Origin: a virus
Lineage: Duplodnaviria; Caudoviricetes
IMG/VR virus record: IMGVR_UViG_3300044627_003892
Direction: 5' to 3' (one strand)
DNA: 64,000 nt
In this document: in pieces, positions 13,816 to 61,611 of the stretch
How the letters are laid out: every line of letters starts with the position of its first letter
How positions within the stretch are numbered: the stretch's first letter is position 1
Position numbers and translations under genes: made by a program
The notes under the pieces: model-generated
Database searches by the model: none
Told to the model about the DNA's origin: nothing
What the model saw: only the letters and a program-made list of their open reading frames with translations

Positions 13816-15309
13816 ATGTCAATTCATCGCTCATATTTTAATAGAAACAATACAATTCAATATAACAGTTTCACAAACACTGGTAAATCACCGTGGACTG
13901 AACTGTATTTTGGGTCGGCAAACGATTCTATAAGTCCGTCAGGATTTAGTCGTTTTATATTTGATTTAAATTTATCAGGTCTTACCCAAAAAATTCAAGA
14001 CGGAATCATATCTACAGGATGTACAGGATTTTCGGGTATAACTCATACTTTAAGAATGACAAATACTTCGTCATTTGATAACGAGTTATTAAATGATACA
14101 ACCTCAACAGGTAGAAGAAGAGCAACTTCTTTTGATTTAATATTATTTAGAATACCTTTAACTTCAGGTTCAACAGGTAATGCTCAATCTTGGGATGAGG
14201 GTGTTGGATACGATTACTATAATATAACAAAGACCTTAAATACTTCTAACGGATTATTAACACCAATAGCTCTACCTCAAGATAAATCATCGTCACAAAG
14301 ACCTTCCAATTGGTTTCAAACTACAACATTAAGTGGATGGAGTACTAATGGAATATATAATAATACAACTGGAGGTAATGTTGATTATTCGGATTTAATT
14401 ATTGTTGATACTCAACATTTTGAATTTGGTAATGAAGATATTGAGTTTAATATGACAAATGAAATTAATCAATATCTTACAGGTTCCACATCAGGATTTA
14501 CAGGATGGGGTATTGCGTATTTACCTCAATTAGAAAATTTAACAGGGTTAACTGAAAATTATTCTGTTGGATTTTTTACAAGACACACTCAAACATTTTA
14601 TGAACCGTTTTTGGAAACATCATATAACGATTTAATATTAGATAATAGAAATTCATTCTATTCTTACAATAATAATAATCTTTATTTATATTCTTATATT
14701 GGAGGGGTTCCAACGAGTTTAGACAATTTACCGTTGGTTACAATTAGAAATAACCAGGACAGTGTTATTGGTACTTATACAAGTTGTCAAATAACACAGG
14801 GTGTTTATCAAATAACAACAAGTGGGATAACTGTAACAACTCCATGTATGTTTACTGATACTTGGTCTAATTTAGTATATAATGGTGTTTCATTACCTAA
14901 TGTGGTTAATGATTTAACAGTATTACCTTATCAAGGGTATTTTACATTAGGAACACAAAGTAAAGACCCTGAATTATTTGGATTTGATTTTTATGGTATT
15001 AAACAAGATGAAAAAATATTAAACACTGATTTACGAAAAGTTGGTGTAATTGTTAAAAAAGCATATTCTTCAAATGAAGTTTTAACACCTGTAACAGTAT
15101 ATTATAGAGTTTATGTTCACGAAGGCCAGACAGAAGTACAAGTTCAAGATTGGACGTTAGTTAATAGAGCGTCAAATGAGTACTATTTTATATTTGACAC
15201 AAGAGATAAAATCCCTAATGAATATTTTATTGATTTAAAAGTATTAACATCAGGTGAAGTAGATACTTATAAAAGAACAATTAAATTCCAAATTGTTAAC
15301 AAAAAATGA
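13816..15309 (+). CDS. Probable virion structural protein (T/S/G/N-rich, beta-rich)
   Basis: 497 aa, late motif at 13797-13804, SRFIFDLNL segment typical of phage tail-associated beta-sandwich proteins. Confidence 0.5.
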   Translation: MSIHRSYFNRNNTIQYNSFTNTGKSPWTELYFGSANDSISPSGFSRFIFDLNLSGLTQKIQDGIISTGCTGFSGITHTLRMTNTSSFDNELLNDTTSTGRRRATSFDLILFRIPLTSGSTGNAQSWDEGVGYDYYNITKTLNTSNGLLTPIALPQDKSSSQRPSNWFQTTTLSGWSTNGIYNNTTGGNVDYSDLIIVDTQHFEFGNEDIEFNMTNEINQYLTGSTSGFTGWGIAYLPQLENLTGLTENYSVGFFTRHTQTFYEPFLETSYNDLILDNRNSFYSYNNNNLYLYSYIGGVPTSLDNLPLVTIRNNQDSVIGTYTSCQITQGVYQITTSGITVTTPCMFTDTWSNLVYNGVSLPNVVNDLTVLPYQGYFTLGTQSKDPELFGFDFYGIKQDEKILNTDLRKVGVIVKKAYSSNEVLTPVTVYYRVYVHEGQTEVQVQDWTLVNRASNEYYFIFDTRDKIPNEYFIDLKVLTSGEVDTYKRTIKFQIVNKK

Positions 15310-15824
15310 AAAAAGTAACATTAAAAGAAAACGAATACGTTAAATTATTAAAATTTGTTTTATCCGAAGCTTTTACGGCAGGGGAAGATAAGATTGACGC
15401 AATTTTAGATAAAATTAGTCAATCAGGTATGGAATCAATCACACCTGAAGAAAGAGAAACTCTTGAAAAATTTACTAAGGGTATTTCAATAGAAGATGAG
15501 TCATCATCTAAAGAAGATTTTATGACAAAAGCGGGTGGTTTTTGGTCTTTTGAATTTCCAGGAATGCCATCGTTTAAATTTAGATATGAGTCAACTGAAG
15601 ATACTGAAGATGAAAAAATACATACAGGATATCTAACAGTTGATGATAGTGATTACTATGGTGAAATTTATTGTGATACGGAAGGTAATTTCCAAACTTG
15701 TATGTTTGAAAATACAACTGAAGGAACCAACGTATTTGAGGATTATGAAGGTTTAGAACACGATATTGAAGTGTTTTTAGATGTTGTCTGTAATGACCTA
15801 AAAGAAGATGATATGATGGCGTAA
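15306..15824 (+). CDS. Hypothetical acidic protein with propeptide-like N-terminus
   Basis: MKKVTLKE...VLSE, then DKIDAILDKISQSGMESITPEERETL (resembles the DUF6576 helical hairpin). Confidence 0.6.
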   Translation: MKKVTLKENEYVKLLKFVLSEAFTAGEDKIDAILDKISQSGMESITPEERETLEKFTKGISIEDESSSKEDFMTKAGGFWSFEFPGMPSFKFRYESTEDTEDEKIHTGYLTVDDSDYYGEIYCDTEGNFQTCMFENTTEGTNVFEDYEGLEHDIEVFLDVVCNDLKEDDMMA

Positions 15825-15825
15825 T

Positions 15826-16269
15826 ATGAAAAATTTAAATAACATAATTAAAAAAGTTCTTAAAGAGGAAAATCAAAGATACATGTTTTTCTCTAACTTA
15901 GAACAAATGAAACGCCAATGTGAAATACTACTTGGTAAAGATAAACAAATGATAGAATCAATTTTAGATAATGGACACGATTGGGCTCAAGACCATATTG
16001 CCGAAGCTAAAAATAATATGGACCAAGTATTTGATTTTATCATGAATGAAATCGAGGGTGAAGATTTTAGTAGTGATGACGCTGTAGAAGTAATGTATGA
16101 AGGTCGTAAAAAAGCGGGTACTAAATTATGTGCTCGTGGTAAAGCAGCGGCCGAGTCAAAATATGACGTGTATCCCTCAGCTTACGCTAATGGTTATGCG
16201 ATTCAAGTATGTAAAGGTAAAAAACCTGGTTTAGACGGAAAAAAACGTTGTTCAGGAGCATATTGTTAA
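15826..16269 (+). CDS. Hypothetical protein with basic Cys-containing C-terminal module
   Basis: MKNLNNIIKKVLKEE N-terminus; KLCARGKAAA...YPSAYANGYA..CKG. Confidence 0.75.
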   Translation: MKNLNNIIKKVLKEENQRYMFFSNLEQMKRQCEILLGKDKQMIESILDNGHDWAQDHIAEAKNNMDQVFDFIMNEIEGEDFSSDDAVEVMYEGRKKAGTKLCARGKAAAESKYDVYPSAYANGYAIQVCKGKKPGLDGKKRCSGAYC

Positions 16270-59949: not shown

Positions 59950-59983
59950 TTTTTTTTGTTTTATTATAAATATACATTAATTT

Positions 59984-61033
59984 TTATTTTTCCCAATATT
60001 TTGTACCACAAAGTCCTAACCATCTTTGCATCACATCATATAATTCTTCAGATTCATATACCATCCCTAATTTTATACCCTTAGGTAGTTTTGCGGTTTC
60101 CACTGGTTCAGGTTCTTTAGTTAATGTAACAACAACAGGACCTGTAGGCTTTGATATTAATGGAACACTACTTTTTAAATATCCATTTAACTTAACTATT
60201 AATTTTGTAGAATCAGAAATATATAACGGATTAAAATCTAAAAGGATTTCATAACCACCTATTTCAGTTAAATTTTTATTTATATCAACTTTACTATTAA
60301 TTGCTGTGTCATCATCAACAATAATCCTTATATTATCTAAAACATCGTCAGTAATTTCTATTAGTTCTTTAGTTTGGGAATCTTTTAATTGTAACTTAAC
60401 TTGAATATAATTTTCAAATTTAATAGTTTTAAAAATTTTATCTATTTCTATTGTTTCCCCTTCTTTTTTTTCTAAATTAAAAACTTTTCGTGAAATTTCA
60501 TTACCAACATTAACTAATGTTTTATACGTATCATAATCAAATTTAAAAATTCCATTATCATCAGTATAAACTTCTTTTGAGCTATCATCTTTTTTGTTTG
60601 TAAGAATAACTTTTAAATTACCTATTGGTTTTTTTGATTTTGAATCAATAACCTGTATTTTTGCCATTTTTGTGGCGGTAATTGCAACAGTGTTCAATTC
60701 ACTACCTTGTTTTAAAATAACTTCAACAGATGTTTTTGAATTATCAATAGTAACTGTTTGTGTTTCGAAACCTACAAAGGCAATTGTTATTTTATCTCCA
60801 CTAAAATTTTTTAATACAACATTACCATTTGTATCAGTTGCTCCGTTTACTTTATTAGCGTTATCAGGGTCGTAAACCGTTGCACCAACAATTAATTCTC
60901 CTTTATTATCCTTTACAGTTACAGTTAAATTTCTAGGAGTCGACTCGTTTAAAAAAATCCTTTTATTAATTTTTGAATTTAATTCTAAAATCCTATTAGT
61001 TTCTTCAGATAGTAATTCAAATTTTGTCTTCAT
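59984..61033 (-). CDS. Protein with SusC N-terminal (CarboxypepD_reg-like) Ig domains
   Basis: VTVKDNKGELIVGATV...GATDTNG...ITIAFVGFETQTV...VILKQGSELNTVAITA, plus a second degenerate repeat. Confidence 0.75.
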   Translation of the reverse strand: MKTKFELLSEETNRILELNSKINKRIFLNESTPRNLTVTVKDNKGELIVGATVYDPDNANKVNGATDTNGNVVLKNFSGDKITIAFVGFETQTVTIDNSKTSVEVILKQGSELNTVAITATKMAKIQVIDSKSKKPIGNLKVILTNKKDDSSKEVYTDDNGIFKFDYDTYKTLVNVGNEISRKVFNLEKKEGETIEIDKIFKTIKFENYIQVKLQLKDSQTKELIEITDDVLDNIRIIVDDDTAINSKVDINKNLTEIGGYEILLDFNPLYISDSTKLIVKLNGYLKSSVPLISKPTGPVVVTLTKEPEPVETAKLPKGIKLGMVYESEELYDVMQRWLGLCGTKYWEK

Positions 61034-61611
61034 TTTGTCATCCCCCTTTTAAAGTTTTGAATTCCCTGTCTAACATTTTGAATTCCTTGTTTAGCGTTTT
61101 GAACTTTTTCTTTAGTGTTTTGTGTAACGTCTTGAAATTTATTTTTAACGTTTCCAATACCTTGTTTAACATTATTTTTAAAACTTCCGTCTGAATCACT
61201 TTTTACTTTTGGGGTTTTTTGTTTTTTAACATCATTCTCGTCAAGTCCCTCATATTCCTTAAGTACAAAATCACCATAACTATTACAAATATATTCTAAA
61301 ATTGTTTGTTGTGACGGGTCACTTGTCTGACCCTTTACATATCCCTTTATAAGGGCGCTTGACCCTTTACTTGTCGCAATAAATTCTACATCCTGTACAA
61401 TAAATTGGAACGATTCTTTAGTTAAACCTCTTTTTTCAACAATTGTAAAAGTTCTGTTTTTCATACCAGGTATCTTTGGTCTGATTGAATTATCACCATA
61501 TAAAAACCTCTTAATTAATTCTTCAGGAGTTTTAGTTAATTTAGATTCTTCAGCAATAACCTTATTAACAATGTTAAAAATATCATTTTCGGTTAAATTA
61601 ATTCTTTTCAT
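61030..61611 (-). CDS. Hypothetical late protein with propeptide-like N-terminus
   Basis: MKRINLTENDIFNIVNKVIAEE; late motif at 61619-61626. Confidence 0.75.
   Translation of the reverse strand: MKRINLTENDIFNIVNKVIAEESKLTKTPEELIKRFLYGDNSIRPKIPGMKNRTFTIVEKRGLTKESFQFIVQDVEFIATSKGSSALIKGYVKGQTSDPSQQTILEYICNSYGDFVLKEYEGLDENDVKKQKTPKVKSDSDGSFKNNVKQGIGNVKNKFQDVTQNTKEKVQNAKQGIQNVRQGIQNFKRGMTK

Follow-up and report, generated by a model that had tools for sequence, protein, structure and literature searches.

A portable terminal leader on unrelated late proteins of an uncultured T4-like jumbo phage of Bacteroidota: a putative capsid-targeting propeptide

Why would many otherwise unrelated proteins of one phage begin with a similar short peptide? 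The question is raised by a 64 kb stretch of viral DNA (Duplodnaviria; Caudoviricetes; IMG/VR record IMGVR_UViG_3300044627_003892), referred to below as the window, which has a G+C content of ~30% and comes from the genome of a T4-like jumbo phage of freshwater Bacteroidota that has not been cultured. A preliminary description, made from the DNA letters alone, had proposed that about 20 of its proteins share an N-terminal amphipathic propeptide that ends in L/I/V-x-E and serves as a capsid-targeting signal. For ~12 core genes this observation holds. About 12-16 late proteins appear to carry a putative removable terminal helix of 13-30 residues, which we consider is probably an enlarged and longer version of the capsid-targeting sequence (CTS) and gp21 propeptide system of phage T4.

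The 14 N-termini quoted in the preliminary description all translate exactly as written. The motif that had grouped them proved too loose, as its frequency is close to chance: [LIV]-x-E occurs within the first 25 residues of 37 of the 80 open reading frames (ORFs) of the window (46%), compared with 35% of internal 25-residue segments. The announced number of members is not reached within the window either, and ~12-16 of the 80 ORFs are defensible. An iterative search that began with five seeds of the window and took in 80 loci anchored on the major capsid protein (MCP) yielded a stricter element, the class-1 leader, MKK-(I/V)(I/V)(K/R)-LTE-SDLxRIVKRVIxE, an amphipathic helix lying between two h-x-E sites 13-14 residues apart (h, hydrophobic residue). 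Its main form can also be written MKK-hh(K/R)-L(T/S)E-SDLxRIVKRVIxE, and the iterated consensus reads M-K-K-(V)-[IV]-[KR]-[LI]-[TSK]-E-[SN]-[DEQ]-[LI]-x-[KNR]-[LI]-[IVL]-K-[KR]-[VI]-[LIV]-x-E. All window members end in h-x-E, and their helices have hydrophobic moments of 0.43-0.80. Full leaders comprise 21-30 residues and half leaders (xIIKKVLKE) 13-14. From their sequences, the latter are taken to be truncated forms of the former, as orthologues of gene 15826-16269 carry either the full 22-residue leader or the half leader before the same ERYMFF body.

Several analyses indicated that this stricter leader is not a by-chance resemblance. Nine pairs of N-termini scored 35 or more, versus 1.6 for internal segments, and every one of these pairs involves genes listed in the preliminary description. 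The bodies that follow are indeed unrelated, as had been claimed, with a best pairwise BLASTP E value of 0.29 in the window. The preliminary description had suggested scanning the genome and its relatives with a hidden Markov model (HMM). We built one from the relatives only and ran it on the six-frame translation of the window. Six matches scored above the best reversed-sequence decoy (7.1 bits), from 36.9 bits for gene 57203-57520 to 9.4 bits for gene 53272-53871, and all six start at the first Met of their ORF. With a model of the helix alone, devoid of the initial MKK, 65 of 69 non-redundant matches in the window and its relatives were N-terminal, for an expectation of 11% (p = 9e-57). Within the window the DNA coding for the leaders is only ~50% identical, so their similarity is kept at the protein level and does not stem from a recent repeat.

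The leader is also widespread outside the window. Scanning IMG/VR with a pattern that fixes only MKK, a gap of 2-3 residues and LTE[S/T]DL returned at least 119 stretches, and the leader heads at least 95 proteins falling into at least 73 unrelated clusters. In the 95 complete proteins among the matches listed, the positions left free by the pattern carry 2-3 bits through R-I-V-K-R-V-I and the Glu. The terminal Glu is present in 89 of the 95, P3 is I, L or V in all 95, and P4 is V or I in 84. In the same set, the most conserved free positions of the sequence logo are V at -6, V at -3, I at -2 and E at 0; the residue after the Glu, often Gln, still carries 1.45 bits, and all later ones less than 0.5 bit. 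The leader is thus real, portable and sharply bounded at the Glu. A search of 5.8 billion proteins with the consensus gave 73 matches, all metagenomic. None of them has a telling name, two bear the automatic label 'membrane protein YheB', and one has a thioredoxin Pfam domain. The string LTESDL was not found in a text search of the literature, which returned no paper on this leader. In one relative (L122, IMGVR_UViG_3300036398_003487), five consecutive small genes of an 11-kb stretch have near-identical 22-residue class-1 leaders before unrelated bodies, in what looks like a dense cargo cassette.

The genomic context is that of a T4-type head module, coded on the minus strand in the order portal, small core-position genes, protease, acidic scaffold and MCP. 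The protease, which the preliminary description had put forward as the processing enzyme, is indeed of the gp21 prohead type. As also announced, residues 56-61 of the MCP read HLINE/A (a slash marks the actual or predicted cut), and BLASTP aligns this site (...HLINE60/A61) with the gp21 cut site of T4 gp23 (...FLTE65/A66). LINE/[AS] is invariant among 72 relatives, and the leaders share the h-x-E/A/S/Q boundary with this MCP site. The scaffold candidate has N- and C-terminal helices that are kept in 31 orthologues. A structure prediction of the complex between scaffold and leader peptide scored 0.00, with controls not run, and is evidence neither way.

In GenBank phages the MCP search found distant relatives only (immuto, RM378 and T4-likes), the nearest cultured one being Flavobacterium phage immuto with 38% identity. 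No GenBank phage matched the head module (18000-26000) by Megablast or the scaffold-position ORF by tblastn. IMG/VR contains hundreds of uncultured relatives with MCP identities of 71-87%, and the complete leader-bearing ones are 294-412 kb long.

The preliminary description had also stated that most members carry a late motif. Of the 63 occurrences of TATTTAT, 28 are 5-30 nt upstream of a start codon on the same strand, versus a mean of 3.95 and a maximum of 11 for permuted motifs, and the motif precedes the genes for the portal, protease, scaffold and TerL. It is found at 10 of the 16 leader genes of the window and at 18 of the 64 other genes (p = 0.017); in the complete relative G009 the figures are 10 of 15 and 76 of 403 (p = 1e-4). 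TATTTAT differs from the host-type TAnnTTTG and may be an element of late promoters, and we infer late expression of the leader genes. Its spacing to the ATG is often 5-8 nt, suggesting very short transcript leaders. The 28 sites, usually (A/G)TATTTAT(A), precede head genes and many other genes of the minus strand (e.g. 25820, 22500, 21445, 29070, 46381 and 59207).

The proteins behind the leaders are diverse, with predicted mature forms of 67-969 residues and isoelectric points (pI) of 4.1-9.6. Pfam and PHROGs gave no function for most of them. Known domains are rare. The protein 57535-59196 has PPK2 (1.6e-70) and Hydrolase_2 (4.6e-19, a SleB-type cell-wall hydrolase) domains; a cell-wall hydrolase among the cargo would fit a function in entry. 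This gene, on the minus strand, codes for a complete PPK2 polyphosphate kinase and the hydrolase in a single ORF, and its orthologue in the relative G001, with ~370 residues after the leader, apparently lacks the hydrolase part. Other domains found are CarboxypepD_reg (59984-61033) and DUF6576 (15306-15824). For the 826- and 995-residue proteins, the ESM Atlas returned only a sub-threshold peptidoglycan-binding lead, for the latter. We also asked how often the putative cleavage motif occurs in the bodies. In 130 dereplicated cargo bodies, h-h-x-E is depleted (observed/expected 0.72, z = -2.4), versus a ratio of 1.15 in the other proteins of a complete relative; the control motifs h-x-D (1.18 in cargo, 1.19 in others) and h-h-x-K (0.98 and 0.99) show no such difference. 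This depletion is a suggestive, not a strong, sign of a link between the leaders and the head protease.

The closest known system is that of T4, in which the CTSs of the internal proteins IPI, IPII, IPIII and Alt are removed by gp21 (Mullaney and Black 1996, reviewed in PMC9026906, PMC3012670, PMC5694885). In T-even phages, unrelated internal proteins share only this CTS, which loads them onto the scaffolding core (PMC3012670, PMC9026906). Residues 4 and 7 of the T4 CTS carry targeting, and residues 8 and 10 processing (PMC9026906); V(-6), V(-3), I(-2) and E(0) of our leader match its Y4, F7, I8 and E10, a match of pattern rather than proven homology. Both systems have a short terminal propeptide (a putative one in ours) on unrelated proteins that ends in L/I-x-E, together with a gp20/gp21/gp22/gp23 module, and T4 Alt likewise has a C-terminal propeptide. 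The differences are that the full leader has 21-30 residues, versus 10-19 for T4 CTSs, with two h-x-E sites flanking a 13-residue helix, that at least three interchangeable classes occur, with related helices at extreme C-termini, and that the 64 kb window has ~12-16 such genes and its relatives at least 73 such families, versus a handful in T4. In addition, the cargo here includes enzymes, proteins of 800-1000 residues and many acidic proteins, and is known from sequence alone.

Two other systems are less similar. In the giant phages phiKZ, 201phi2-1 and SPN3US, head propeptides are cut by a diverged gp21 homologue, and 19 head or ejection proteins of 201phi2-1 are processed after Glu; these propeptides, which contain redundant cleavage sites, are regarded as signals that direct proteins to the prohead (PMC5694885, PMC9026906). 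The processing of many proteins after Glu by a prohead protease, predicted for our phage, would be common to both, but the giant-phage propeptides have few determinants beyond the P1 Glu, often exceed 100 residues and show no portable consensus. Their P3 is usually a small residue (S/A/G). In our set P3 is I/L/V, and one consensus of ~22 residues is reused. Encapsulin cargo-loading peptides and the terminal helices of scaffolding proteins illustrate that a short terminal helix or peptide suffices to load unrelated cargo into a shell of the HK97 fold. Encapsulin peptides resemble the leaders in their terminal placement (N or C) and portability; in contrast, they bind directly to the shell and undergo no proteolytic removal, whereas our helix is flanked by a predicted protease site and, on the T4 precedent, its partner would be the scaffold core.

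By analogy with T4, the amphipathic basic helix would dock its protein onto the acidic scaffold core during prohead assembly. The gp21-type protease would then cut after the cargo-facing Glu of h-x-E, to judge from the sequence patterns, and free the mature protein inside the head. In T4, an E-to-D substitution at P1 abolishes processing and leaves targeting intact. The cargo might subsequently be available to leave with the DNA. As the concept has been known for T4 since 1996, this reading broadens an established mechanism and proposes no new one. What is new is the long two-site consensus helix, its interchangeable classes and occasional C-terminal use, its occurrence on at least 73 families and on enzymes, and its presence in jumbo phages of Bacteroidota that are far from T4. 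If the reading holds, a short signature would tell which proteins of uncultured jumbo phages travel in the virion and might be delivered to the host together with the DNA. Compared with the few proteins of T4, the cargo repertoire would be much broader and include a polyphosphate kinase-cell-wall hydrolase fusion, and engineers could use the 22-residue leader to direct packaging. The packaged T4 inhibitor IPI illustrates that a virion can carry anti-defence factors.

The capsid-targeting interpretation is compatible with every computational test that we ran, although the motif first used to define it was too loose and some members are weak. Several observations weigh against it. The full leaders are longer than T4 CTSs, and peptides of this length do not allow homology to the latter to be demonstrated. 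The first L(T/S)E can also be read as a helix N-cap and may therefore resemble the cleavage motif by coincidence. The predicted mature forms of many cargos have a pI of 4-6 and are thus acidic, unlike the basic internal proteins of T4. The depletion of h-h-x-E is modest (z ~ -2.4), and h-h-x-D is also low in cargo (0.87). Of the members initially listed, those of genes 42364-43872 and 38791-39762 are carried by h-x-E alone, a motif near chance level, and are weak as N-terminal members. Finally, the gp21-type protease occurs in 14 of 18 leader-selected contigs of at least 100 kb, including all six that are at least 90% complete, but all the relatives belong to one clade, so this co-occurrence is no more telling than that of the phage ClpC protein, found in all five complete leader-bearing genomes.

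Leaders of other types accompany class 1; two further classes, together with the comparison of orthologues, raise the six HMM members to the total of ~12-16. Class 2 has the helix L-x-E-E-[IV]-x-R-[IM]-K-x-L-[MI], found at the start of 43890-46370 and 57535-59196, with a fuller pattern LxEE(I/V)xR(I/M)KxL(M/I)G(L/I)...hxE. It is looser in 46383-49370 and 59984-61033. A similar leader is retained by the relatives of 57535-59196 and 46383-49370 in G001. The HMM of this class-2 helix is so short that matches other than its seeds are not reliable, and 59984-61033, being itself a seed, is not an independent match. Class 3, also N-terminal, reads hh[ST]E[SE]E[KR]xRILxLH...hxE; it has 39 matches in the relatives and is weak at best in the window (50500-50967).

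The leader had been described as N-terminal, which mostly applies, but related helices also sit at extreme C-termini. Five unrelated proteins of the relatives and the window protein 38791-39762 end with a class-2 helix, each time after [LV]-x-E, for example LNE/EIERIKNLIK(stop). C-terminal copies of the class-1 helix were found in the 16985-17728 family only. Two core proteins have segments of similar appearance, neither of which is statistically significant: the scaffold (19989-21419, minus strand) ends in ...NLIE/SKTYENPQFLRMKDIMSKIIK(stop), like the C-terminal class-2 helices and below the decoy threshold, and the core-position protein 23214-23924 (minus strand) has a conserved internal LTESERNSVKEIL at residues ~160-172, like class-3 leaders.

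A more ambitious version of the capsid-targeting idea, which we regard as speculative and rather unlikely, is that T4-like jumbo phages of Bacteroidota use a two-ended cargo-loading code. Interchangeable helices at either terminus, with the protease site on the cargo side, would copy helices of the core proteins, as might be glimpsed in the C-terminal copy of the Cys4 protein 16985-17728, the C-terminal helix of the scaffold and the internal segment of 23214-23924, and mimicry of these helices would let the cargo assemble together with the core. In that case, the sequence of uncultured phages would directly reveal all the proteins that they inject, anti-defence effectors among them.

Among the explanations that do not involve capsid targeting, the one that survives best, while still improbable, is that the leader is a recognition helix for another machine, such as the ClpC lacking an N-domain encoded by 34254-36362, for which it would be a degron, an adaptor tag or an unfolding handle, or else an address for some other late assembly or compartment. 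The presence of ClpC in all complete leader-bearing genomes, coded in the same late region, is consistent with this, as is the terminal position (N or C), also typical of degrons. Co-occurrence cannot separate ClpC from the protease, so a different receptor for the leader remains conceivable. In contrast, the same h-x-E/A/S boundary is present in the MCP at a site homologous to that of T4 and in conserved proteins of the head module, the leader and the T4 CTS agree in the register of their key residues, and the cargo is depleted specifically in h-h-x-E, a pattern better accounted for by a Glu-specific endoprotease than by an unfoldase.

Inhibitory propeptides, RiPP-like leaders (those of ribosomally synthesized and post-translationally modified peptides) and compositional chance are less likely explanations. 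It is doubtful that the leaders are zymogen-type inhibitory or folding segments cut by the head protease or another one, with packaging governed by other features or not taking place at all. An enzyme such as the fusion of PPK2 with a cell-wall hydrolase might require inhibition while in the cytoplasm, and some leaders of the 29124-30428 family are as short as 8 residues and devoid of a recognizable helix. However, a near-identical 22-residue helix on at least 73 unrelated bodies is hard to fit with protein-specific inhibition, and the leader is detached from the fold in AlphaFold2 (AF2) models. The T4 prohead protease is active only inside proheads, and cleavage by such an enzyme would therefore imply prior packaging. 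Very unlikely, in our view, is a role as the recognition sequence of a modifying enzyme: many small, fast-evolving proteins sharing one leader do resemble RiPP precursor families, but the leaders are also found on large enzymes and conserved head-module proteins, and the Pfam and PHROG scans of the window, made without a systematic linkage analysis, revealed no modifying enzyme beside the leader genes. A compositional artefact of a 30% G+C genome, in which Lys/Ile/Leu/Glu-rich MKK N-termini would hold h-x-E by chance, may explain the weak cases of 42364-43872 and 38791-39762, given the frequency of bare [LIV]xE (46% versus 35%), but as an account of the leader as a whole it is scarcely credible, and for the core set it is refuted by the decoy-controlled HMM matches, the N-terminal placement, the information drop at the Glu and the low identity of the leader DNA.

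Table 1. Leaders, C-terminal helices and head-module genes of the window. Bits are scores of the relatives-only HMM; a slash marks the predicted cut.
Feature	Position	Strand	Evidence or remark
Class-1 leader MKKVTLKENEYVKLLKFVLSE of gene 15306-15824	15306-15368	+	31.6 bits
Half class-1 leader MKNLNNIIKKVLKE of gene 15826-16269	15826-15867	+	17.0 bits
Half class-1 leader MSKLDTQIKKVLRE of gene 16743-16988 (probable)	16743-16784	+	Pair scores 36 and 32 with other half leaders
Degenerate C-terminal copy of the leader helix, gene 16985-17728	16985-17032	-	Orthologues carry C-terminal class-1 helices
Variable leader ending YLNE/AS of basic Cys4 head-module protein 16985-17728	17657-17728	-	Alignment A2, E24 invariant
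gp23-type MCP	18067-19959	-	phrog_138, 3.4e-66
MCP propeptide, residues 1-60, ending LINE/A	19780-19959	-	
Acidic scaffold at gp22 position, putative docking partner	19989-21419	-	Site between protease and MCP; composition
T4 gp21-type prohead (head maturation) serine protease, presumed leader-removing enzyme	21759-22478	-	phrog_207, 2.9e-44
gp20-type portal protein	23948-25804	-	phrog_213, 2e-63
TerL	27313-29058	-	
Leader ending RINE/AP of head-module protein 29124-30428	30372-30428	-	Alignment A1, E19 invariant
C-terminal class-2-like helix (SLTE/)ELKNFKRFIK(stop) of gene 38791-39762	38791-38823	-	Like the C-terminal helices of relatives
Weak N-terminal leader MNKINSHKEVISEIKKLRNVLLEE of gene 38791-39762	39691-39762	-	TATTTAT 20 nt upstream supports this start
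MNLLDKHLLLEE of gene 42364-43872 (weak, perhaps fortuitous)	43837-43872	-	h-x-E and TATTTAT 6 nt upstream only
Class-2 leader MKKEILSEINRVREIMGLQIISE of 826-residue protein 43890-46370	46302-46370	-	Pair score 37 with 57535-59196
Leader MEKNQKELLERVLLLMKYDNKETLSE of 995-residue protein 46383-49370, looser class 2	49293-49370	-	G001 orthologue keeps EILNRVKLLMKYDTKNTLNE
Leader MKYLIKESQKQIILE of gene 52388-53011 (possible; fourth type)	52388-52432	+	G003 orthologue starts MKIIITESQKKILLIE
Half class-1 leader MNIKKLIKKVLTE of gene 53272-53871	53833-53871	-	9.4 bits; best decoy 7.1
Class-1 leader MKKFIITESQLEYIVKRHINE of gene 57203-57520	57458-57520	-	36.9 bits
Class-2 leader MRNLLTEVSKIKNNMGLTE of PPK2 and SleB-type cell-wall hydrolase fusion 57535-59196	59140-59196	-	G001 orthologue leader MKKLILEVEKIKSLIGLPINE
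Class-1 leader MKKVVRLSESELTRLIKTVVKE of gene 59515-59949	59884-59949	-	28.4 bits
Long leader MKTKFELLSEETNRILELNSKINKRIFLNE of CarboxypepD_reg-domain protein 59984-61033 (probable)	60944-61033	-	Resembles class 2
Class-1 leader MKRINLTENDIFNIVNKVIAE of gene 61030-61611	61549-61611	-	21.6 bits

Comparison with orthologues informs on several entries of Table 1. In the leader of 15306-15824, E8 and E21 are invariant. The half leader of 16743-16988 has a low HMM score, and the same IIKKVLRE leader is present in the relative L042. Orthologues of 53272-53871 keep xIIKKVLKE, followed by a variable linker. The G001 orthologue of 57203-57520 has a body 95% identical and a diverged leader. Only the first 97 residues of the G001 protein 35834-36994 align with 43890-46370, and that protein carries MKKEILLEINRFREIIGLKIIKE. 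The orthologue of 42364-43872 has no similar leader, the N-terminal leader of 38791-39762 is without orthologue or HMM support, and no orthologue of 59984-61033 was found in the data of the relatives. TATTTAT lies 5 nt upstream of both 43890-46370 and 57535-59196 and 8 nt upstream of 52388-53011.

Two conserved head-module proteins, 16985-17728 and 29124-30428, were absent from the initial list. Leaders of the 16985-17728 family have 6-24 residues across the relatives and end in h-x-E directly before a body rich in A-T-[TS] (alignment A2). This Cys4 protein, coded next to the MCP, has an invariant and very basic core, WFGTKKKPKGSKQPKGPWVNIC..HPPCGRP..YPKCRA..ACQQKR. The family has no named PHROG relative, and a profile search against PDB sequences was empty; its members may be DNA-binding internal head proteins or nucleators of cargo loading. 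In the 29124-30428 family, the leaders have 8-50 residues and end in h-x-E directly before the body, which starts with APIDYEGPE, and one orthologue has a full class-1 leader. The AF2 model of 29124-30428 (m6764448fc64d; pTM 0.82) has a confident all-alpha fold with an acidic tail, from which residues 1-24 are detached as a helix with pLDDT <50. With this model, Foldseek found no PDB match and one uncharacterized phage protein in BFVD, and a profile search of the family against PDB sequences gave two rows at chance level only (E 0.28 and 0.37). The model of 15306-15824 (pTM 0.58) has a helix at residues 8-19 and a low-confidence break at 20-27. In both models the leader is a separate helix, and a break of low confidence after it coincides with the predicted cut.

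Comparable leaders are found in the cultured phage immuto (NC_055915; L107, stretch 106920-148500), which makes the idea directly testable and immuto a usable experimental model. Its gene between portal and protease starts with MKKSQIVKAVQEVLEE, others start with MKKQILSEQFRRMQKLAGIITE and MKKSQLRQIIKEALD, and two genes start with M(A/E)(D)NF(N/D)L(R/K)(S/K)FL(T/V)ENKLT.N...LKE. The MCP site of immuto reads QIVSE/A. Among the late genes of the window are also those for the ClpC-like ATPase (34254-36362, plus strand) and bS21 (23034-23219, plus strand, inside the head module), as well as a reported tmRNA (38379-38761).

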